The notes below the pieces were generated by a model that did not search any database, was not told the DNA's origin, and was given only the letters and a program-made list of their open reading frames with translations. The position numbers were made by a program, and so were the translations under genes. Of a DNA stretch of 45,161 nucleotides, positions 1,858 through 40,720 are shown in pieces. The DNA is from Escherichia phage KW1E_UTAR, in sequence record MZ506873, one strand, 5' to 3'. How positions within the stretch are numbered: position 1 is the stretch's first letter; the number at the start of each line of letters is the position of its first letter.

Positions 1858-2520
1858 ATGTCATTCGCTCAATTTATACTGAAGAAGGTGGATAATGGTT
1901 CCGCCGCTGAAGCTGAAGTTCTGAAGCGTAGGAAGGCAGAAGGCCGGGCCGGGCTACCGAAGGCAGCGCCGAAGAAACGCGGACCTAAAGCGAAGTGGAC
2001 GCCGGAGCGCGACGAGCGACTTAAGAACCTGGCGCGCAGATATACCGGGCCGGAGATCGCCGAAAAGATGGGCCTGACTTACTGTTCCGTCAGGACTCGC
2101 GCTTCACGTATAGGCGTAAAGCTGATTGGTCATCGCGGCAAGTACCACGAATGGACTCATGAAGAAGTAGAGCTTGTCAAAATCATGAGGGAGAAGGGTT
2201 ACACGTCGGTTGAGATCGGGAAGGTCCTGAAGGTCAGCGATATCCAGGTTCGCGGCACAATCCACAGAATGAAACTTCCGGCGCTCAGGAAGAAGTGGTC
2301 GCTTGAAATGGAATACGCTGTCGCCGCTTACTACAAGGAGAAGGACAGCACGATCCTGGAGTTCGTTCTCAAGATCAAGAAGTCATCCCTACATTCACGA
2401 TATGGTCGACTATCTGCAATGCGTCGACTGTCTCACCTTCGCGGCCTGAAGAACGTCAAGGATCTGGTGGCTGAATACTGCGAAAAGAAAGGCATTGCAT
2501 TACCATCGCGTAATAGTTAA
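1858..2520 (+). CDS. DNA-binding protein with two tandem GcrA-like HTH repeats
   Basis: Repeats KWTPERDERLKNLARRYTGPEIAEKMGLTYCSVRTRASRIGVKL and EWTHEEVELVKIMREKGYTSVEIGKVLKVSDIQVRGTIHRMKL match the GcrA N-terminal pattern as I recall it; start ATG 1858 after GGAG. Confidence 0.5.
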   Translation: MSFAQFILKKVDNGSAAEAEVLKRRKAEGRAGLPKAAPKKRGPKAKWTPERDERLKNLARRYTGPEIAEKMGLTYCSVRTRASRIGVKLIGHRGKYHEWTHEEVELVKIMREKGYTSVEIGKVLKVSDIQVRGTIHRMKLPALRKKWSLEMEYAVAAYYKEKDSTILEFVLKIKKSSLHSRYGRLSAMRRLSHLRGLKNVKDLVAEYCEKKGIALPSRNS

Positions 2521-2904: not shown

Positions 2905-3434
2905 AGCCGATCACCATCAACCTATCAGACGACGACATCGAATTCGCCTACTACCTTAATGGTAGGGAAGAGACATTCGCGAAGAGTTTAAGCCAGTGCA
3001 GCCCGGACAGTCGGGCTGTGGGAATACTGGGGGAAATGGCGGCGACTCACTTCCTTCGTGGAATGTACGGGACGAAGCGATCTGTCGTTCCTATGGGGCT
3101 GTCTGCCCGCGCTGGCGGCGGCCTTAACGCTTACGGAATGGGTGACATCATCACCGTGATGAACGGCTCGCCCTCCCACAGGACGAAGGAGGTTCACACG
3201 TTCGAAGTGAAGGCGCGCACCGCTGGTGCAGGTAAGGGAAACCTTGTTCGATGTGACAGCGCCGAACAGTATCAGGAGTCCGGCATTATGCGCGTCATCT
3301 TCGTGGACGTCGATGTCCAGCCTGATCGTGCAGTCTGCCAGATCGTCGGCTACCATCAGCCTGAAGACATCCTTGAATGGGACGTGGTCACAAATGGCAT
3401 GGGTCAGGAATGCTATATCATGCCCGTAATTTGA
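2901..3434 (+). CDS. hypothetical protein, possible PD-(D/E)XK (VRR-NUC-like) nuclease
   Basis: GTG start overlapping upstream stop; GMGDIIT...FEVK...SAEQ...RVIFV resembles a D...(E)xK nuclease core. Confidence 0.45.
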   Translation: MKPITINLSDDDIEFAYYLNGREETFAKSLSQCSPDSRAVGILGEMAATHFLRGMYGTKRSVVPMGLSARAGGGLNAYGMGDIITVMNGSPSHRTKEVHTFEVKARTAGAGKGNLVRCDSAEQYQESGIMRVIFVDVDVQPDRAVCQIVGYHQPEDILEWDVVTNGMGQECYIMPVI

Positions 3435-3459
3435 CCGACAAGATCCACGGCGTTACTAT

Positions 3460-3490
3460 TCCCCGGACTAACACTTCGGGGATTTTTTTT
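3460..3490 (+). terminator. rho-independent terminator
   Basis: TCCCCG-gactaacactt-CGGGGA hairpin followed by a T8 run. Confidence 0.55.
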
Positions 3491-3766
3491 ATGCATAAGA
3501 TGCTATGGGTCGCTATCGCTGGCCTGGTCGGGGCCATCATCGGGATGTTCCGTTCCAAGGCTGACACTCTCACACAGCGCGCTTCGTTCGTCCTGTTCGG
3601 ATTCGCCGCGTCAATCTTCCTGACTCCGCTGGCTGCCCGCTGGTTCGGTCTGGGTGACATTTACGAGGTCGGCGGCGCTGGCTTCATTATCGGCATGTTC
3701 TGGATTGCTATTCTGGACCGGGTGAAGCAAGCTATGACGGACGGTAAATTACCGGAGGTCAAATAA
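3491..3766 (+). CDS. putative holin (three predicted transmembrane segments)
   Basis: Small hydrophobic protein (MHKMLWVAIAGLVGAIIGMF...) immediately upstream of the endolysin cassette; no clear SD. Confidence 0.5.
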   Translation: MHKMLWVAIAGLVGAIIGMFRSKADTLTQRASFVLFGFAASIFLTPLAARWFGLGDIYEVGGAGFIIGMFWIAILDRVKQAMTDGKLPEVK

Positions 3767-4092
3767 TGCGTAACATTACCCTTACACAGTTCTACAGCGT
3801 GGACATGTTCTGGCTATCATACGTCGGGATCTTGTGCTTGCTGGTCTTCTTCATCGTGTCAGTGGTGAACGTGTATTCGCCATACTGCAAGGACACGGTG
3901 ATCGATCGTGTCCTGTACCTGGCGACGGCATTCATTAGCCTGGTAGGGCTTGAACAAGTCATCTTCAGCGATTACCCTGTGAACCTGACGACCAGCCTGA
4001 TCATCGTCTTCACACTTCGCCAGGCGAACAACATGGCAAAGAGAGTTATCAGGCATCACTGGCCCGAAATGGGGCGACGGTATCACTTCTAA
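3766..4092 (+). CDS. membrane protein, second holin/antiholin candidate
   Basis: Hydrophobic segments; ATG overlaps upstream TAA; GGAGGT 6 nt upstream. Confidence 0.45.
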   Translation: MRNITLTQFYSVDMFWLSYVGILCLLVFFIVSVVNVYSPYCKDTVIDRVLYLATAFISLVGLEQVIFSDYPVNLTTSLIIVFTLRQANNMAKRVIRHHWPEMGRRYHF

Positions 4093-4100
4093 CCGTTAAC

Positions 4101-4126
4101 GGGTCGCTTCGGCGGCCCTTTTCTTT
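4101..4126 (+). terminator. terminator-like hairpin (possible attenuator)
   Basis: GGGTCGC-ttcg-GCGGCCC stem with one G-U pair followed by TTTTCTTT, directly upstream of the endolysin start. Confidence 0.4.
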
Positions 4127-4141
4127 ATGAGGACTATCACA

Positions 4142-4636
4142 ATGATGAAGACCGGGAAGCGCGGCATCGCGCTGATGCATGGATTCGAAGACTGCCGCCT
4201 TCGTGCCTATCCAGATCCTAAGACTGGCGGCAAGCCGTACACGATCGGGTGGGGTAACACTCAATACGCTGATGGTCGCCCGGTAGGTCCGAACGACGTT
4301 ATCAGCCAGGCGCGCGCCGACGAAGAGTTCGTCTTCGACCTGATCACGTTCGAAACCATGATCGATAAGGCCGTGAAGGTTCCACTGACACAGAACCAGT
4401 TCGACGCGCTGGTCAGTATCGTCTACAACGTCGGCCCGGGCAGTAAGTACAAGTCCGGCATCCTGCGACTTAAGAACGGGCAGCCTTCGACGCTGTTACG
4501 CCTCCTGAACGCTGGGGACTACAAAGGGGCCGCTGACCAGTTCGACGTCTGGATCAGCAAAGGTTCGGCGGTTGAAAATGGTCTTCGTCGTCGCCGGGCA
4601 GCAGAAAAGGCCCTGTTCCTGGACAAGTCAGCATGA
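4142..4636 (+). CDS. endolysin, T4-type lysozyme (glycoside hydrolase family 24)
   Basis: E...D...T catalytic pattern in HGFEDCRLRAYPDPKTGGKPYTIGWG, comparable to T4 lysozyme; alternative start at 4127. Confidence 0.85.
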   Translation: MMKTGKRGIALMHGFEDCRLRAYPDPKTGGKPYTIGWGNTQYADGRPVGPNDVISQARADEEFVFDLITFETMIDKAVKVPLTQNQFDALVSIVYNVGPGSKYKSGILRLKNGQPSTLLRLLNAGDYKGAADQFDVWISKGSAVENGLRRRRAAEKALFLDKSA

Positions 4637-5115
4637 ACTGGCGAGTCGCCGCGATAGCTATGGTCTGTGCCGGGGCTTTCTTTCTGGGCGGTTACTGGAA
4701 GGGCCACCATGACGCCGACCAGTCCGCCACGGTTGAACGGCTAACCAATGAGCGCGACAGTATGGCCCGGACGATCGAGTCGTACCGGAACACCAACGAC
4801 AAATTGAGCGAGATCGCCAACAATGCAAAAGAGAAAGAAGAACGCGCGCGGACTGTGGCTTCTGCCCTTCGTCATGATGCTGACAGCTTGCGCGGACAGC
4901 TACAGGGCATCGTCGACGCTTATCGTCCCGGAACTACCAGCAGGGGCGCGCCAGCCAGCCAGGTCGTCGGTCTGCTTGCCGGACTGCTTGACGAAGCAAA
5001 CCGAACGTCAAACGAGCTATCAGAAGAGGCTGAACGATATCGTCGCGCCGGGGAGCAATGCGAATTAAGCTATGATGCCGTAAAACGCGCTCAAACGCTC
5101 TTAGAGAAGAGGTAA
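4633..5115 (+). CDS. Rz: i-spanin (Rz-like)
   Basis: N-terminal transmembrane segment, coiled-coil periplasmic domain, position directly after endolysin; ATGA overlap. Confidence 0.75.
   Translation: MNWRVAAIAMVCAGAFFLGGYWKGHHDADQSATVERLTNERDSMARTIESYRNTNDKLSEIANNAKEKEERARTVASALRHDADSLRGQLQGIVDAYRPGTTSRGAPASQVVGLLAGLLDEANRTSNELSEEAERYRRAGEQCELSYDAVKRAQTLLEKR
4823..5068 (+). CDS. Rz1: o-spanin (Rz1-like lipoprotein), embedded in the +1 frame of Rz
   Basis: Signal peptide with lipobox LTAC (LLPFVMMLTAC), short Pro-containing mature part, wholly inside the Rz gene. Confidence 0.7.
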   Translation: MQKRKKNARGLWLLPFVMMLTACADSYRASSTLIVPELPAGARQPARSSVCLPDCLTKQTERQTSYQKRLNDIVAPGSNAN

Positions 5116-16514: not shown

Positions 16515-16633
16515 TGGCGAAGCTGAAGTCCTGGGCGGTCAGGCATAAGTCGGGCCGCATATTGTTCATCACCAACAGCAAGCGGACCGCAATGAACCGC
16601 CTGTCGATGGGCTGGAAGGTAACGAGACAATGA
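16514..16633 (+). CDS. 39-aa basic micro-protein (tentative)
   Basis: Hand-translated MAKLKSWAVRHKSGRILFITNSKRTAMNRLSMGWKVTRQ; coupled by TAATG and ATGA overlaps. Confidence 0.3.
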   Translation: MAKLKSWAVRHKSGRILFITNSKRTAMNRLSMGWKVTRQ

Positions 16634-16803
16634 AGGCTCTGTTCTGGATCGTGGTTTTCGGTCTACTGTTCTTAATGGCTGGCCTTGAGTCAAACAGTCG
16701 CCGTGAACGTTGCGAAGTCGACATGGCAAAGCAGCTACACAGCGAAGCCATTTATCAGCATGGTGAATGTATTGTGAAAGGATGGGGCAAGGTTCGACTA
16801 TAG
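16630..16803 (+). CDS. 57-aa small membrane protein (tentative)
   Basis: Hand-translated MKALFWIVVFGLLFLMAGLE...; ATGA overlap with upstream micro-ORF. Confidence 0.35.
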   Translation: MKALFWIVVFGLLFLMAGLESNSRRERCEVDMAKQLHSEAIYQHGECIVKGWGKVRL

Positions 16804-35600: not shown

Positions 35601-36252
35601 GGGGAATCGCATCACTCAGCAGGGCGTCAGAATTGACGATCAGGGCCGACTGATTGACGCGCAGGGTAACAGGATCGCGCAAGCTGAAGCGGCTATCAGC
35701 CAGAACCAGACGGCGATCGCGAACGCTAACCAGGCTCTTGCTACTTACAAGACTCAGGTGGCGGCCCAGTTTAACCAGCAGTCGGCAGCGATTGAGCAGA
35801 AGATGACGTCTCAGTTCACGGCGACAGGCGGTTCAGCGATCTACAGCCTGAAGGCTGGCGTGACCTATAACGGCGTTTACTATGACGCTGGTATGACGCT
35901 GTCAACCATCGCCAACGGCTCAGGAGTGAAGACCCGCGTAGCGTTCAAGGCTGACCAGTTTATCATCGCACACCCTACAACTGGCGGCCTGTTCGCGGCG
36001 TTCGCCGTGGTGGGGAACGATGTGTTCATTGATACGGCACGAATCAGGGCGGCGTCCATTTCGTTCGCACAGATCTCCGACACGCTTCAGTCGTCGAACT
36101 TTGCGTCCGGTCAGAACGGGTGGAGACTGCTGAAGAACGGCACGTTCGAAATTAACAGCGCCAGCGGTAACGGTCGCCTGTTAATCCAAAATAACCAGAT
36201 CCTTGTTTACGATGCATCTGGTCGCCTTCGTGTTCGTTTTGGTCTGTGGTAA
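32695..36252 (+). CDS. central tail fibre / host specificity protein (lambda J-like)
   Basis: 1185 aa; conserved J-like block NPAWVFFDCATEPRFALGNKI...RIAQRCDQLVPDGRGGEEPRY; position. Confidence 0.85.
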   Translation: MDQPDNMKIIEKATGKVVRGAKGGGGSVHTPKEDPDSLTSLAVVRMLLALGEGEFESFGTDDLKKRVMLNGTPIMNADGTYNFNDVVIDYRPGTSGQSHIAGMPAVESETGVGVDLKATNEWTQALTNTSIDAVRVRIGFPTLLQQKSNGDRVGSRIDYTIFIRNLSGGELWKKDFSAIGKTTTLYERDHRIDLPPSQTGWIVAVRRNTADSTDSNLVNPTKIQAYTEIVDLKLSYPNTALLYVEFNAKLFQSIPKVSIKAKGRKIRVPQNYDPITRTYNGSWDGSFKWAWSNNPAWVFFDCATEPRFALGNKINASMLDKWELYRIAQRCDQLVPDGRGGEEPRYLCDVYIQGREQAWTVLKDLAAIFAGMTFWGGGMLNVLSDRPGDVKQVLTRANVVNGKFQRHGGSGRNRRSVANVSWDDPANHYQTNVAVTPMIELVNRYGWTEPLELSAIGCTRLGEAQRRGKNALITNVTDGTTDFSIGMEGIEFMPGDIIGIADDTFSGGQFGGRVVRANGARSVILDRPVNEVTKANDWILFRQATDPDVSRFQIASISADRKTITVTTDILKGVNPFTPWVVDTQAIAITQHRVISVTWNEQDNTFDCVVLKHDPSKYDAVDLGAHLDDRPTTLIPPGFMEVPKNIQITSYEMLVQGTRQTVLRTTWDKVKGAVVYDAQWRRDNNDWINVPSTSTEGFEVQGIFSGDYWVRVRATNSSGVSSPWGEAVKTGITGREGAVPVPQGLKATSQNWGIKWNWLAGRQADTSDIAFTELEHSVKGLSGYGPFTLLTTVAFPADSFVQDGLAFGQYIRVRARYVDRLGNKSDWSAVVEGNANEDAGDYLAGITDDLLTSEDGKELMNQINTMPEAVYESMLTDYKTLLDVKAGEGNQVARIQIAYNVAVEANEAVAQLETLVGSRIDDAEAAIHTLQTAQASIEQSFAQYQQTVSAKFGDVQASFDEQGNLIDAQGNRITQQGVRIDDQGRLIDAQGNRIAQAEAAISQNQTAIANANQALATYKTQVAAQFNQQSAAIEQKMTSQFTATGGSAIYSLKAGVTYNGVYYDAGMTLSTIANGSGVKTRVAFKADQFIIAHPTTGGLFAAFAVVGNDVFIDTARIRAASISFAQISDTLQSSNFASGQNGWRLLKNGTFEINSASGNGRLLIQNNQILVYDASGRLRVRFGLW

Positions 36253-36256
36253 TATC

Positions 36257-36278
36257 AGCCCCTTCGGGGGCTTTTTTA
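36257..36278 (+). terminator. rho-independent terminator after the J-like gene
   Basis: AGCCCC-ttcg-GGGGCT hairpin followed by TTTTTT. Confidence 0.65.
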
Positions 36279-36290
36279 TTGGGGGTTATC

Positions 36291-36605
36291 ATGCCGCAAG
36301 GCTTGCAAGCTTGGGACGCGTCAGGGCGTATTGTGGTGGACCTGGGGGACTATTCGACAAGGTTCATCAGGTCACTGACTGTCAACCTACCAGCCAATCA
36401 GGTCGCCGTTAATGTGGCGGTGGCTGGCGTTACCGACACCGGACACTTCGCCGTAATCACGAAGGGAAACGAGTCGATCGTGTCTGGTCTGCTTATGACG
36501 TCGTTAACTGCCGTAACGAGGAACGGCGGGGTCTGGGTTATTGCCCTTGACGGGGCGCTGACTCTTGCCCGATCTGTAGTGGTCGACATTTACGCGTTTA
36601 CATAA
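36291..36605 (+). CDS. hypothetical protein, paralogue of the next gene (tail-associated?)
   Basis: N-terminus MPQGLQAWDASGRIVVD matches MSGFQVWNEAGALTID of the 36615 gene. Confidence 0.45.
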   Translation: MPQGLQAWDASGRIVVDLGDYSTRFIRSLTVNLPANQVAVNVAVAGVTDTGHFAVITKGNESIVSGLLMTSLTAVTRNGGVWVIALDGALTLARSVVVDIYAFT

Positions 36606-36614
36606 GGAGGGGGT

Positions 36615-37253
36615 ATGTCAGGTTTTCAGGTATGGAATGAGGCTGGCGCTCTGACCATTGATTCAGATAACAGGCACACGATCGTGACCGCTCAATCGAC
36701 GCCAGGGCTAACTGACGTCGGGGCATATGGCGGGGCCACGCCATTCGGAGACTGGAAGGAGTTAGGATATTTGACCCCGGCAGCGATGCCAGTCCAGAAC
36801 AATTTATACTGGGTCAGGCTCAACACTAACGCGTGGTGCTTCCCTGGCGCGTGGATGTTTAAGCCTGGAACATTCCAGATCATCACGACGTCAAGAACTC
36901 AAGCGCTTACTTCTGGAATTCTTGACGTTTATAATTCTGCTGGTGGCCTGATCTGGTCGGCTGTATCAGCCCAGAACATGCCACGAACAAGGCAGATTGT
37001 TTCCATCACTTCCGCCGCCGACAATGCTGTAGCAAGCGTGACGCCTGGGTTCAGTCCGTGGTTCCTTATGGGGGCCTGTCCGGGTAACTACTCATACGAC
37101 GGCGAAACGACTGGGTATTCAGGTTTAATTTTTAGATGGACGGGAACCCAGTTACAATATGCATGGGTTAGAAAGAACCAGAAGACATTCGCGGAAACGT
37201 TCGGCGGAAGAGGCGGATTAAGAATTCCACTGGCTGAATTCCCTGGGAGGTAG
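36615..37253 (+). CDS. hypothetical protein, paralogue of the previous gene (tail-associated?)
   Basis: Strong RBS AAGGAGGGGG; shared N-terminal motif with the 36291 gene. Confidence 0.55.
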   Translation: MSGFQVWNEAGALTIDSDNRHTIVTAQSTPGLTDVGAYGGATPFGDWKELGYLTPAAMPVQNNLYWVRLNTNAWCFPGAWMFKPGTFQIITTSRTQALTSGILDVYNSAGGLIWSAVSAQNMPRTRQIVSITSAADNAVASVTPGFSPWFLMGACPGNYSYDGETTGYSGLIFRWTGTQLQYAWVRKNQKTFAETFGGRGGLRIPLAEFPGR

Positions 37254-37259
37254 ATCAGC

Positions 37260-39110
37260 ATGGCACAAGGCACAATCAAAGTAACAAACGGTAGCGTCGA
37301 CGTTGTCGGGACCGGGACGGCATTCACCAGCATGAAGGCTGGCAGCTTCCTAACGTTCGTCCTGACTGGCGTGGCGTACACTGTAGCGATCGACAGCATT
37401 CAAAGCGCCACAGCGCTGAAGCTGGCGGTCAAGTTCGACGGACCGACTACCAGCGGCGTGGCGTTCAATGAATCACCTGTCGGCTCTATGGCGCTGGCGA
37501 CGATGGGCGTCACCGTTCAGGCCCAGAAAGCGCTTCGCATGATGATCGCCGACCAAACGAACTGGCGAGAAGTGTTCAGCAATAAGCAGACCATCACTGT
37601 AACCCTCCCAGACGGAACGCAGTATTCCGGCTATTCTTGGGGCTACATTAGCGACCTGCTGAAGGAAATTAACATCCCGGCGCTGGAGGGCATTCGCGAC
37701 CAGACGATCGCGGCTCGCAACCAGGCGCAGACCTACGCGACTAACGCTTCGAACTCAGCGACGTCAGCAAACACGGCGAACACTGGCGCACAGGCGGCGA
37801 AGACGGCAGCAGAGACAGCCAGGACAGGGGCACAGACGGCGCAGCAGGGAGCGGCAGCCTCAGCCACCACAGCAGGGGCAGCGGCTACCACAGCCACCAA
37901 TAAAGCCACAGAAGCCACTAACCAGGCGGCGCTGGCGAAGCAGTACGCCGACAGCGTCAACCCGGCTAACCTGCTGGCGAAGGCGAACAACCTGTCAGAC
38001 GTGCCGGACAAGGCCGCAGCAAGAACAAACTTGCAGATCAACAGATTCAACCAGGACTCAGCGACAGAAACAAGAGTGCTTTCTGGTGATGGTTCTCAGG
38101 CAGTGATTGTTTCAAATAGTGCGGCGTGGGGTGTTTATAAATTTGGATCTGGATGGATTCCGCTTGGGGTTGGTCAAGGTGGAACTGGATCTACATCGGC
38201 GGCTGGAGCGAGATCCAATCTTGGGGCCATTGGTGTTGGAGAGTATGGCTGGGGTGCTAACTCTATTCCAACGTGGGACCTTAGCGGGAACGTTGCTGCT
38301 GGGCTTTACAATACAGGGATTAACAATAGCGTATGGGGTAGCACTGGGGGATTAACACTTCATATGCCTCAGGGTGGAAATTGGGGTTTTGATATCTGCG
38401 TTCCTGCTGGTGGTCAGCCTGGGCTTGCTGTTAGAACCTATAACGGATCTGGTGCTGGTCTTAACTTTGTTAAGATGATGCACGCGCAGACCGGATCGAA
38501 TGCTGTTATCACGACAAACGCAAACTCAATTCAGGAGCCGGGATTGAGTAATGGTATTGTTCAGCACACAGCATCAAACAACATGCCAACCACTGCAACA
38601 AACAACTATAACTATTTGCAAGTTATTAGCAGGGGGCTTGGTGACAATGCGGCGTGGCAGCAATTCGCCCTGCCTTACGCAACGCAAACGGACGCTGGGA
38701 GGATGTTCTTTAGGGGGTGGAACACAAACACATTCTCACCATGGAAAGAGATATCAACAGTTCCTGTGTCCGATGAAAGACTAAAGGATGTAAAGGGTAA
38801 TCTTAATGTTGAGTGTTCACTCGATAACATAAACAGAATGGAGTTCAAGATCTTCAAGTACCTTAACGACTCCCCTGAAAGATCTGCGCGGCGTGGATTA
38901 ATCTCGCAACAGATAAGATGGATTGATCGTGAGTACGTGAAGGAAATCGGCGGTTATTATCATCTTGACGAGACTCCGCTAATGCTTGACGGTCTTGCGG
39001 CAATCAAGGCACTTCGCGCCCGCGACGTTGAAAATAAGGGGCGGATCGAAAAACTGGAAAGTGATATTGAAGAGTTAAAATTGCTGCTTGCTTCCATGGC
39101 GGCTAAATAA
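37260..39110 (+). CDS. tail fibre protein with C-terminal intramolecular chaperone (peptidase S74-like) domain
   Basis: Ala/Thr/Gln-rich repeat shaft, Gly-rich distal domain, C-terminal SDERLK...coiled-coil module starting at about 38769. Confidence 0.8.
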   Translation: MAQGTIKVTNGSVDVVGTGTAFTSMKAGSFLTFVLTGVAYTVAIDSIQSATALKLAVKFDGPTTSGVAFNESPVGSMALATMGVTVQAQKALRMMIADQTNWREVFSNKQTITVTLPDGTQYSGYSWGYISDLLKEINIPALEGIRDQTIAARNQAQTYATNASNSATSANTANTGAQAAKTAAETARTGAQTAQQGAAASATTAGAAATTATNKATEATNQAALAKQYADSVNPANLLAKANNLSDVPDKAAARTNLQINRFNQDSATETRVLSGDGSQAVIVSNSAAWGVYKFGSGWIPLGVGQGGTGSTSAAGARSNLGAIGVGEYGWGANSIPTWDLSGNVAAGLYNTGINNSVWGSTGGLTLHMPQGGNWGFDICVPAGGQPGLAVRTYNGSGAGLNFVKMMHAQTGSNAVITTNANSIQEPGLSNGIVQHTASNNMPTTATNNYNYLQVISRGLGDNAAWQQFALPYATQTDAGRMFFRGWNTNTFSPWKEISTVPVSDERLKDVKGNLNVECSLDNINRMEFKIFKYLNDSPERSARRGLISQQIRWIDREYVKEIGGYYHLDETPLMLDGLAAIKALRARDVENKGRIEKLESDIEELKLLLASMAAK

Positions 39111-39139
39111 AAAAAGGGGCCGAAAGGCCCCTATTTTTT
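39109..39139. terminator. bidirectional rho-independent terminator
   Basis: A7-AGGGGCC-gaaa-GGCCCCT-ATTTTTT between convergent tail fibre (+) and replication-block (-) transcription. Confidence 0.65.
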
Positions 39140-39238
39140 ACCGCTCTTTCTGTGCTTCCATTCCGCCCAGAACACGAATCCCATTCCAACGAAGTACGCC
39201 GCGAACAGCCACGCCGTAACAATCAAGAACGGCTTCAT
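39131..39238 (-). CDS. 35-aa hydrophobic micro-protein (MKPFLIVTAWLFAAYFVGMGFVFWAEWKHRKSGKK)
   Basis: Hand-translated; ATGA overlap with the stop of the HTH gene; stop codon inside the terminator hairpin. Confidence 0.35.
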   Translation of the reverse strand: MKPFLIVTAWLFAAYFVGMGFVFWAEWKHRKSGKK

Positions 39239-39432
39239 TCAGTCACCGTGATCACGTCATGCCACTGGCAACCCAGGACGCCGGACAGCTTCAGGCAAGT
39301 CTCAGGTGTAGGGACTTCCTTGCCAGCTTCATACTGGCTAATGCGCGGCTGGCTTACGCCGGACTGGATGGACAGCGCGCGCTGTGACAGACCAGCTTTT
39401 TCGCGCAGCTCTTTAATGTTAGTGGTGATCAT
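39235..39432 (-). CDS. XRE-family HTH transcriptional regulator (Cro/CI-like)
   Basis: LREKAGLSQRALSIQSGVSQPRISQYEAG is a classic XRE helix-turn-helix. Confidence 0.7.
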   Translation of the reverse strand: MITTNIKELREKAGLSQRALSIQSGVSQPRISQYEAGKEVPTPETCLKLSGVLGCQWHDVITVTE

Positions 39433-39467
39433 TGTCTCTTTCCTCTTCCGTAATTTGTGAGGGCCAT

Positions 39468-39496
39468 ATTATCACGGCCCCGTCATTATTGTCTAA
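39468..39496 (-). promoter_or_regulatory. sigma70-like promoter (TTAGAC-N17-GATAAT) for the HTH gene, overlapped by a short GC-clamped inverted repeat
   Basis: Minus strand reads TTAGACaataatgacggggccgtGATAAT; GGGCC...GGCCC at 39461-39480. Confidence 0.4.
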
Positions 39497-39502
39497 CCGT
39501 TA

Positions 39503-39976
39503 TCAGAACGGGATATCATCGTCGAACCCGCTGGTCTGCTGCTGACGCTGTGGAGCTTGCTGCTGTGGCTGTCGCTGTGGCTGCTGTGTCTGCTGGCGTG
39601 GCTGTGAAGGCTGCTGTGGTTCACCCCATCCGCCGCCCTGTGGCGTCTTCTGACCAAAGAGAAGTTTAGGATCTACCATTTCAAGGGTGATATAGGTCTG
39701 CCCGTTATTACCTTCACGCTGATCGATGTTAAGCGCCTCAGACTGGATGGACACGATCTTACCCTTCACCAGGATGTCGTCATAAAAGGCGATCGCCGCC
39801 GGGGTCTTCGCGAACAGGGTGGCCTTATAGTTCGTGTAAACGCGTTCGTTATTCTGTCGGCGATCCTTGAACGATTCGGACATGTCCACGCCGTACATAA
39901 CATACGTACCGTTATTGTTGCTTCCTTCCTTGCGGAACACGTCGCGGCGAATCTCGCCTGTGATAATGTGTGGCAT
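39503..39976 (-). CDS. ssb: single-stranded DNA-binding protein
   Basis: Gln/Pro-rich linker and acidic C-terminal tip DDDIPF typical of SSB. Confidence 0.85.
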   Translation of the reverse strand: MPHIITGEIRRDVFRKEGSNNNGTYVMYGVDMSESFKDRRQNNERVYTNYKATLFAKTPAAIAFYDDILVKGKIVSIQSEALNIDQREGNNGQTYITLEMVDPKLLFGQKTPQGGGWGEPQQPSQPRQQTQQPQRQPQQQAPQRQQQTSGFDDDIPF

Positions 39977-40021
39977 AACGTTAAATCCTTAATATGCGGC
40001 CCGCTGTGGGCCGCTAATAGT

Positions 40022-40720
40022 TTAGAAGTCCCCGAACTCGCCTTCTTGCGCTTGAGCGTCCTGTGGCGGTTCTGGCTGGATATTTTCGCCTGTTTCCGCC
40101 TGAACCACAACCGCGCGCCCTTTCCTGGCGTTCCCACGGTCGTCTGGGTTGAACTTAACCGTCCCGGCGTTTTCCAGTTCGACCTTGCGCTTCGTGTAGG
40201 CGTCGCGAAGGATCTGGAGCGATGCCCGATCATTCGCGAATCGTTCGGTGATCTCTCTGGACATGCCGTTCAGCGCGCCGATGTCAGGGGCTTCCATCAT
40301 TTCACGCTTCCAGTCTGACGCGGTCTTGATAGCCTTCACGCCGTCGTCGTCTGTCGCGTTCAGGTCGAAGATCGACATCTTCGCATAGCGCCGGGCGTAT
40401 GTGTTCGTGGAGCCGAACCCTTGAGCGTCGTTTTTAGCCAGCGGGATCTGTGTCTCAAAGGTCATGGACTGGCCTGATTCGACGTGTATCAGGATGGTTT
40501 CCAGGATCAGGATATCCTTCGATTGATACTCTTTGTGAATCGGGCATTGAATCAGTACCAGCCCGGCTTCGGTAAGCGCTGGGTTAATGGCTTCAGCTAC
40601 CGCCGTCAGGTCGGCGTAAGTGCTTCGCGTATTGTTCTTGTTCTTTACTGGGTCGACGACCAGGCGGCGACACTCAGCGAACGCCTTCAGCACTTTGTCG
40701 GATGGGGTGGATAAAATCAA
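40022..40720 (-). CDS. ERF-family single-strand annealing protein
   Basis: TYADLTAVAEAINPALTEAGLVLIQ pattern resembles ERF; start chosen at TTG 40720, 7 nt after AAGGAG (track start 40759 lacks an RBS). Confidence 0.65.
   Translation of the reverse strand: MILSTPSDKVLKAFAECRRLVVDPVKNKNNTRSTYADLTAVAEAINPALTEAGLVLIQCPIHKEYQSKDILILETILIHVESGQSMTFETQIPLAKNDAQGFGSTNTYARRYAKMSIFDLNATDDDGVKAIKTASDWKREMMEAPDIGALNGMSREITERFANDRASLQILRDAYTKRKVELENAGTVKFNPDDRGNARKGRAVVVQAETGENIQPEPPQDAQAQEGEFGDF

Follow-up and report, generated by a model that had tools for sequence, protein, structure and literature searches.

The genome of Escherichia phage KW1E_UTAR carries, directly after the gene of a small regulator of the XRE family, a 35-codon open reading frame that raises the question of whether so short a frame is a gene at all and, if it is, what its product may do in infection. 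We analysed this micro-ORF in the whole 45,161-nt stretch of the record MZ506873 (hereafter the window), a complete phage genome, and in related phages. A preliminary description, made from the letters alone, had placed a 35-codon frame on the minus strand, with its start in an ATGA overlap with the stop of the helix-turn-helix (HTH) gene and its end inside a bidirectional terminator, and the coordinates bear this out (Table 1). The ATG (39238–39236) overlaps the TGA of the HTH gene (39237–39235), giving ATGA at 39235–39238, and the TAG (39133–39131) runs into the first bases of the terminator hairpin, whose stem (39115–39132, 7 bp, 6 of them GC) was scored as a terminator on both strands. The frame is translated as MKPFLIVTAWLFAAYFVGMGFVFWAEWKHRKSGKK, a 35-aa product in which the hydrophobic peptide with a basic tail of the preliminary description can be recognised as one predicted transmembrane (TM) helix followed by EWKHRKSGKK. 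The ORF had been called unlisted, which was true of the ORF list used at that stage but does not hold for NCBI, where the exact protein stands as QYA57187.1, a hypothetical protein of KW1E_UTAR, and where homologues are annotated in Klebsiella phages KLB22 and KLB16.

Table 1. Features around the micro-ORF, with positions in the window
Feature	Position	Strand	Description	Basis
Bidirectional intrinsic terminator	39109–39138		GGGGCC-TTTC-GGCCCC stem-loop with A/T tracts	Terminator scan, inverted repeat, fold
Tail-fibre gene	37260–39110	+	Convergent, common terminator; context, outside the unit	PHROG tail fibre
Micro-ORF	39131–39238	-	35 codons + TAG; TM helix, then basic tail EWKHRKSGKK	ORF listing
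Shine–Dalgarno (SD)-like GGTGA	39243–39247	-	5–9 nt 5′ of the micro-ORF ATG, within the HTH coding sequence	Read from the sequence
XRE-family HTH regulator gene	39235–39432	-	65 aa; directly upstream of the micro-ORF	Pfam HTH_3, PHROG
9-bp hairpin/palindrome	39460–39481	-	Surrounds the -10 element; lies in the SSB–HTH intergenic region	Fold -15.3 kcal/mol, z -2.75
Sigma-70-like promoter	39466–39495	-	TAGACA-16 nt-GATAAT, or 18-nt spacer with TG-n-TAATAT; upstream of the HTH gene	Promoter scan, 10/12
SSB gene	39503–39976	-	Upstream, same leftward operon	PHROG SSB

We found 14 distinct sequences of the micro-protein family, of 35, 38 or 56 aa, all of them in closely related siphophages of ~45 kb; the tally combines annotated genes, a motif scan of IMG/VR, phmmer and cluster look-ups. 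In the collection searched, the closest GenBank relatives were Klebsiella phages vB_KM5a1-KLB22 and KLB16, assigned by their authors to the proposed family Ca. Mavericviridae, close to Drexlerviridae (PMC11845039). The KLB22 homologue (XDR01099.1) is 88.6% identical to the micro-protein, and the KLB16 homologue (WYD67302.1; 38 aa, GTG start, annotated ‘contains transmembrane domain’) is 54% identical. Both occupy the position of the micro-ORF between the HTH gene and the bidirectional terminator, and gene order is identical at every readable homologue locus. The public name of XDR01099.1, ‘copper-transporting ATPase’, was supported by no profile or PDB search and looks like an annotation artefact. 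Searching 1.84 billion representative proteins with phmmer returned three further representatives of the family and one chance match, and a scan of IMG/VR for the motif FWAEWK gave 67 loci, 66 of them chance or unrelated matches and one a contig with the gene. With two motif designs, a stricter one and one built on the invariant residues, the family was absent from JGI metagenome contigs and from 185,579 representative bacterial genomes. The ORF is not discussed in the literature that we searched, including the papers that name KLB22, KLB16 and KW1E_UTAR. In one of these, KW1E_UTAR served as a comparator and was reported to be without lysogeny genes (PMC11445585), which indicates a strictly lytic lifestyle.

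The start of the micro-ORF is conserved together with the stop of the HTH gene. All nine loci whose junction could be read retain the overlap, as ATGA or GTGA, and the change from ATG to GTG still preserves it. Of all frames, only the annotated one is open throughout the sequences checked; in relatives the remaining sense frames are interrupted, as is the antisense ORF at 39152–39460 (+ strand, 102 aa), which was rejected as a shadow ORF. The micro-ORF frame stays open across a synonymous divergence of ~1–2 substitutions per site, and its indels are all in frame: 63 nt in the 56-aa forms of three relatives, which gain a charged C-terminal extension of 21 codons, and 9 nt in KLB16. Nei–Gojobori dN/dS over the 29 ungapped core codons was 0.06–0.55 for every pair except one near-identical pair, with Fisher P < 0.05 in about two-thirds of the pairs; pairs with KLB16 gave 0.43–0.55 and were mostly non-significant. 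The family is small and shallow, and the selection tests are based on 29–55 codons. Between two of the 56-aa genes there are 14 synonymous versus 8 non-synonymous codon differences (2/5/17 by codon position). For comparison, dN/dS of the HTH gene among relatives is 0–0.16, a stronger constraint than that on the micro-ORF. The preliminary description had proposed conservation in relatives as a check, and had named the lack of a translation signal and of a conserved reading frame as what would speak against the ORF; the 4-nt overlap, the GGTGA motif and the kept frame provide both a translation signal and conservation.

These results bear on the simplest alternative, that the ORF has no function and is either a frame open by chance or the debris of a longer gene in the 3′ untranslated region. 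The hydrophobicity of the micro-ORF is by itself unremarkable, as it ranks 11th among the 352 small ORFs of the window, ~3% of which are equally hydrophobic, with a maximum Kyte–Doolittle value of 2.08 over 19 residues. It also suits this alternative that the family is very narrow, and that a probable signal-peptide remnant occupies the same position in Webervirus-like phages. The distinguishing feature of the micro-ORF is conservation: 14 distinct homologues, conserved coupling and purifying selection set it apart from chance. Given the low dN/dS, the third-position bias, the frame that remains open despite synonymous change, the overlap start that survives even the switch to GTG and the strictly in-frame indels, we consider a non-functional frame improbable. 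The pattern of substitutions indicates that the micro-ORF is under purifying selection, and it is very probably a real, translated gene.

We analysed to which of the two convergent transcription units the gene belongs. The terminator, which folds as RNA with -20.4 kcal/mol (z = -2.97), ends the early leftward operon as well as the convergent tail-fibre gene, and since the latter ends at 39110, there is little beyond the hairpin between the two units. It overlaps the stop codon and the last Lys codons of the micro-ORF in the same layout in all relatives, every form of the micro-ORF ending in the A-tract and terminator. The final Lys-Lys of the micro-protein is encoded by this A-tract and is thus not freely chosen. 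Around the micro-ORF, every Rfam match fell short of its gathering score and had its centre on the terminator. In four relatives whose micro-protein is 80–89% identical, the distal domain of the tail fibre (aa 260–616) finds no match, except for a 34% stretch in KLB22, while SSB, Erf and the micro-protein are conserved. The micro-protein therefore does not co-vary with the tail-fibre tip, and of the two units that meet at the terminator its gene belongs with the early operon.

The leftward operon runs in the order helicase, nuclease, exonuclease VIII, Erf, SSB, HTH and micro-ORF, the last cistron; exonuclease VIII, Erf and SSB are identified by PHROG matches, and the order is common to KLB22 and others. 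The HTH product matches Pfam HTH_3 over residues 6–56 (E = 2.6e-15; 56.6 bits, cut-off 23), and its PHROG matches are families of transcriptional repressors and regulators. Of the term ‘Cro-like’, which had been used for it, the size and the fold family stand, whereas the phage itself has been described without lysogeny genes (PMC11445585). We infer that the micro-ORF is transcribed as the last cistron of this operon, with the early or middle genes, and it may be transcribed in addition from the sigma-70-like promoter upstream of the HTH gene. The promoter is a consensus match, from a scan that gave 2 sites versus 1.6 expected by chance. Six relatives share its -10 block, GTGATAATATG, without change, and the palindrome around it is conserved and unique in the window, with one compensatory change (C–G to G–C) in KLB16 and in another relative, L159.

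Translation would probably proceed by termination–reinitiation at the ATGA that joins the HTH stop to the micro-ORF start, in which case output of the micro-protein would follow that of the regulator. Where a relative shares the proximal GGTGA, the predicted pairing with the 3′ end of 16S rRNA is -7.4 kcal/mol (median of 35 window genes, -6.0), whereas the SD-like motif of L159 is weak (-3.7). The main signal for translation is therefore probably the 4-nt overlap. We rejected production of an HTH–TM fusion by frameshifting, as the junction has no slippery site and the basic tail would lie on the wrong side of the membrane. An extended HTH protein is found in Pantoea phage MED16; its extension is a soluble acidic tail, with no fused TM segment.

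We then considered the product itself. AlphaFold2 predicts a single helix over residues 3–33 (mean pLDDT 83.6), and ten residues are invariant in the family: T8, A9, L11, A14, Y15, M19, F23, E26, W27 and K28. The hydrophobic character persists at 54% identity. The net charge of the flanks is -1 to +1 on the N-terminal side and +2 to +4 on the C-terminal side. The positive-inside rule is the established basis for deriving topology from flank charge, and by this rule the predicted topology is N-out/C-in. A TM helix of ~25 residues with the invariant Glu-Trp-Lys next to the membrane would accordingly be inserted in the inner membrane with the basic tail in the cytoplasm, and the charged 21-residue extension of the 56-aa forms fits a cytoplasmic tail. 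Provided that the gene is real, its product is, by these predictions, very probably a membrane micro-protein. A concentration of the conserved residues on one face of the helix, as for a helix–helix interface, was not borne out by the helical moment of variability (permutation P = 0.28). There is no cysteine in any of the 14 family sequences and no lipobox. Searches of Pfam, PHROGs, NCBIfam, PADLOC and PDB sequences gave no significant match to the micro-protein, so that its function is argued from context only. The sub-threshold matches, which we discarded as hydrophobic noise, were the NCBIfam TspB C-terminal domain (18.3 bits, cut-off 24), the PDB chain 5djq_N and PsbU (E 0.4–0.5) and, for the KLB16 homologue, Pfam and PHROG families with E of at least 0.056.

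To place the gene in context, we compared what follows the HTH gene in other phages. Orthologous HTH genes (42–51% identical, in the same layout of SSB, HTH and convergent tail-fibre gene) stand alone in four phages, namely Pectobacterium phage Taid, Klebsiella phages Diencephalon and K70PH128C1 and Kosakonia phage Kc166B. In such relatives without the micro-ORF, the HTH stop codon directly abuts the terminator. In Webervirus-like Klebsiella phages an orthologous HTH gene (43–48% identical) is followed by a 90-aa secreted protein, by a hydrophobic ORF of 25–29 aa, or by nothing. The gene for the 90-aa protein also starts in an ATGA overlap with the HTH stop, and its product combines a cleavable signal peptide with a periplasmic domain that contains two Cys. 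The 25–29-aa ORF, present in 19 records, is 57% identical over 21 aa to this signal peptide and is possibly a remnant of the 90-aa gene, a warning that hydrophobic debris can persist at this position. These occupants resemble the micro-protein in position, after the HTH gene and before the terminator, and in being envelope-directed, but have no detectable sequence similarity to it. Matches to an HTH profile in a broad survey of IMG/VR were for the most part generic XRE genes of prophages, from which nothing could be learned about the slot after the HTH gene.

As judged from these comparisons, the end of the operon is a variable accessory position, repeatedly filled with envelope-directed products coupled to the regulator, and this supports an envelope-directed accessory role for the micro-protein. 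Because HTH orthologues occur alone or before unrelated ORFs, the pairing of regulator and micro-protein is not obligate. The preliminary description was right in seeing a small membrane peptide coupled to an XRE-type regulator.

The reading that we favour, with a probability of about 0.6, is that this strictly lytic siphophage carries in the micro-ORF a genuine accessory gene restricted to its lineage, and that the gene encodes an inner-membrane peptide acting on a target in the host membrane. The micro-protein would most likely bind or perturb a component of the host inner membrane early in infection. Superinfection exclusion or takeover of the host membrane is our suggestion for the actual function, though we hold it less likely than not; exclusion of a generic form, in which DNA entry is blocked or membrane energisation lowered, and a host-directed toxic activity are both possible.

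The functional model that we favour is provided by T4 Imm, HK97 gp15 and P22 SieA, phage inner-membrane proteins that act on incoming phage DNA (compare PMC10883804). The micro-protein has no sequence similarity to them in PHROG, Pfam, PADLOC or phmmer searches, and KW1E_UTAR is lytic, with no prophage state. Its own inner-membrane location is a prediction from the TM helix and the positive-inside charge bias. Imm, gp15 and SieA are also larger, of ~80–160 aa, often with two or more TM helices. For host takeover the closest parallel is Gp11 of Staphylococcus phage PhiNM1, an early small membrane protein that targets MurG and DivIC (PMC11237401). Gp11 acts in the way that we propose for takeover but works in a host of another phylum, and sequence similarity is not expected. 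A second precedent for a small membrane protein with an effect of this sort is YohP of E. coli, considered below.

Exclusion could also be receptor-specific, as with the lipoproteins Cor (of T1, phi80 and N15) and Llp (of T5), which, like the micro-ORF, are encoded beside a tail-fibre or receptor-binding gene. The micro-protein differs from them in lying on the early-operon side of the terminator, in not co-varying with the tail-fibre tip and in having neither cysteine nor lipobox. Since it has no cysteine, it is not a lipoprotein of the Cor/Llp type, and receptor-specific exclusion of this type is weakened by these features. In the related phage HK578 there is an RTP-like ‘putative phage lipoprotein’ between tail genes.

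The preliminary description had also considered a toxin. If the two genes were a self-regulated cassette, analogous to type II toxin–antitoxin operons or to the hydrophobic toxins of type I, the HTH protein would repress or neutralise a membrane-damaging peptide, and the two would form an addiction, abortive or exclusion module. The arrangement is suggestive, because HTH gene first, micro-ORF second and a 4-nt overlap between them is the typical layout of an antitoxin–toxin operon, and the palindrome around the -10 element is what autoregulation would predict. The HTH protein also matches models of XRE antitoxins, below threshold (36.3 bits versus 71.65 for a Y4mF/HipB-like model and 29.8 versus 61.8 for MqsA). 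The product, with its TM helix, aromatic residues and basic tail, resembles the type I toxins LdrD and Fst, and it has the size and helix of a type I toxin (under 60 aa, hydrophobic, one TM helix). More widely, type I toxins (Hok, LdrD, Fst, TisB) and the bacterial proteins YohP, AcrZ and MgtS resemble it in their length of 25–50 aa, in having one TM helix and in their charged tail. Of these, YohP, a 27-aa protein of E. coli, causes partial depolarisation of the membrane (bioRxiv 10.1101/2025.05.06.652344).

Several observations argue against the cassette. The micro-protein is translationally coupled to a protein gene, unlike type I toxins, and we found no sign of antisense RNA control: the consensus scan of 38500–40200 gave no promoter-like site on the plus strand from which an antisense RNA could start (a weak promoter could escape such a scan), and no Rfam family reached its gathering score in the region. 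Curated toxin families of NCBIfam and Pfam, and PADLOC, gave no match, and the family is phage-encoded and absent from the bacterial genomes searched. The 65-aa HTH protein is a bare DNA-binding domain without an extra segment for binding a toxin, and its orthologues occur alone or with unrelated downstream genes. Furthermore, a strictly lytic infection kills the host anyway (PMC11445585). An obligate couple of toxin and regulator is weakened by the distribution of the HTH orthologues, and we regard the toxin cassette as improbable, on a par with the non-functional frame.

A role in the timing of lysis, which the preliminary description had raised as a holin modulator, appears to us more doubtful still. 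The micro-protein would be a partner of a holin, an antiholin or a membrane-weakening helper that tunes holin firing, and one TM helix with a charged C-terminal tail is indeed a holin-like layout; the KLB16 homologue also has insignificant matches to a holin PHROG and to an Rz-like spanin PHROG (E = 0.19 each). However, the lysis cassette at 3377–5115 is already complete, with two holin-family proteins, an endolysin and an Rz-like spanin, in agreement with the annotation of KLB22. It forms a different transcription unit from the micro-ORF, which lies with recombination and replication genes, and PHROG and Pfam gave no significant holin-family match. The reading as a holin modulator is thereby weakened, as far as gene content and profiles can tell.

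The least probable alternative is that translation alone matters, with ribosomes that reach the stop codon in the terminator stem modulating termination, 3′-end stability or HTH expression and the peptide being incidental: a ribosome near a hairpin reduces intrinsic termination, the stop overlaps the hairpin in every homologue and the convergent units are compact with one common terminator, but purifying selection is on the amino-acid sequence, in which ten residues are invariant, hydrophobicity is retained at 54% identity and, since the HTH stop abuts the terminator in relatives that have no micro-ORF, an extra ORF is unneeded to bring a ribosome there.

The variable position after the HTH gene can also be read more boldly, as a dedicated slot for interchangeable envelope-targeted proteins slaved to the XRE regulator, with the micro-protein as a minimal inner-membrane effector of exclusion or anti-defence whose dose is set by the coupling. 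We consider this unlikely, though less so than the alternatives above. Three unrelated occupants have been seen at the position, the TM peptide of 35–56 aa, the secreted protein of 90 aa and the hydrophobic ORF of 25–29 aa. To our knowledge, the micro-protein is about half as large as any characterised superinfection exclusion (Sie) protein.

Returning to the accessory gene that we favour, the micro-ORF, as a real, selected gene that encodes a single-helix peptide and is confined to a narrow lineage of phages, amounts to an ordinary accessory gene and no new kind of system. Its product, which the public record already lists as hypothetical, joins the familiar class of small membrane accessory proteins of phages as a new member with a narrow distribution. 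The analysis shows an ORF of fewer than 40 codons, of the kind liable to be omitted from gene lists, to be a selected, real gene, and it corrects a misleading public product name; its practical value is at present modest. Some T1-like and related siphophages serve in phage therapy against Klebsiella and E. coli. If a block of superinfection or the disabling of a host membrane protein proves true, the micro-protein would be among the smallest phage effectors of that type and a handy probe for its host target, and the HTH gene with the variable ORF behind it would show where, in T1-like and related siphophages, accessory genes for envelope-directed products can be expected.

We considered whether a gene might lie antisense to both the HTH gene (XRE-family regulator) and the micro-ORF, which encodes a predicted 35-aa membrane peptide. 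The frame of the 102-aa ORF found there is intact in KW1E_UTAR and in its relative KLB22, and is interrupted in KLB16, the IMG/VR contig, L159 and L161, which are also relatives. The ORF was therefore rejected as a gene and is regarded as a shadow ORF.

The KLB22 homologue of the micro-ORF, also of 35 aa (1954..2061 of locus L001; PP554336 24525..24632), is named ‘copper-transporting ATPase' in GenBank, and a metagenomic copy, DAZ70778.1, is labelled ‘putative copper-transporting ATPase'. As none of the searches made supported this name for the 35-aa ORF, the label looks like a propagated annotation artefact. In Webervirus-like Klebsiella phages, the position 3′ of the orthologous HTH gene is occupied either by the gene of a secreted protein, 90 aa long, whose C-terminal part contains two Cys residues, or by a hydrophobic ORF of 25–29 aa similar to the signal peptide of that protein; judging by this similarity, the shorter ORF may be a truncation remnant of the 90-aa gene.

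Features of KW1E_UTAR and of related loci
Feature	Coordinates	Strand	Remarks
Two neighbouring holin-family ORFs	3377..4092	+	PHROG 2359, PHROG 2508; upstream of endolysin
57-aa ORF	16630..16803	+	strongly hydrophobic N-terminus (MKALFWIVVFGLLFLMAGL...); directly upstream of large terminase gene
102-aa ORF	39152..39460	+	antisense to HTH gene and micro-ORF
9-bp hairpin or palindrome	39460..39481	-	arms GGGGCCGUG...UAUGGCCCU; surrounds -10 element of promoter-like site between SSB and HTH genes
ORF 3′ of orthologous HTH gene, Webervirus-like Klebsiella phages	L003 1700..1789		
As above	L080 2701..2973		
As above	L163 1201..1473		

The palindrome between the SSB and HTH genes occurs only once in the KW1E_UTAR genome. 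Its stem carries a compensatory change, C-G to G-C, in KLB16 and L159, and the loop, GTGATAATATG, is invariant. It may act as the HTH protein's operator or, alternatively, as an RNA processing or stability element.

On the other side of the micro-ORF, the convergent tail-fibre gene (37260..39110, plus strand) shares the N-terminal ~260 aa of its product with relatives (55–95% identity). For the distal part (codons 260–616) no counterpart was found in the relatives, except for a 34% match to the C-terminal chaperone region of KLB22. The receptor-binding part of the fibre has thus undergone a domain swap, with one boundary at the terminator shared with the micro-ORF. The related Dhillonvirus HK578 (L162 889..2051; NC_019724 20388..21550) has an insertion between its tail genes, on the opposite strand, that encodes a membrane protein of RTP-like type together with a putative lipoprotein described as Cor-like in its annotation note. 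In contrast to HK578, KW1E_UTAR has no such insertion in 36252–37260. No tRNA genes were found in the whole window.

The 57-aa ORF is probably the counterpart of MVRL003, a KLB22 gene annotated as ‘transmembrane and signal peptide', and may be another small envelope protein of KW1E_UTAR. Finally, the two holin-family ORFs lie side by side ahead of the endolysin, an order that points to a holin/antiholin pair or a two-component holin.
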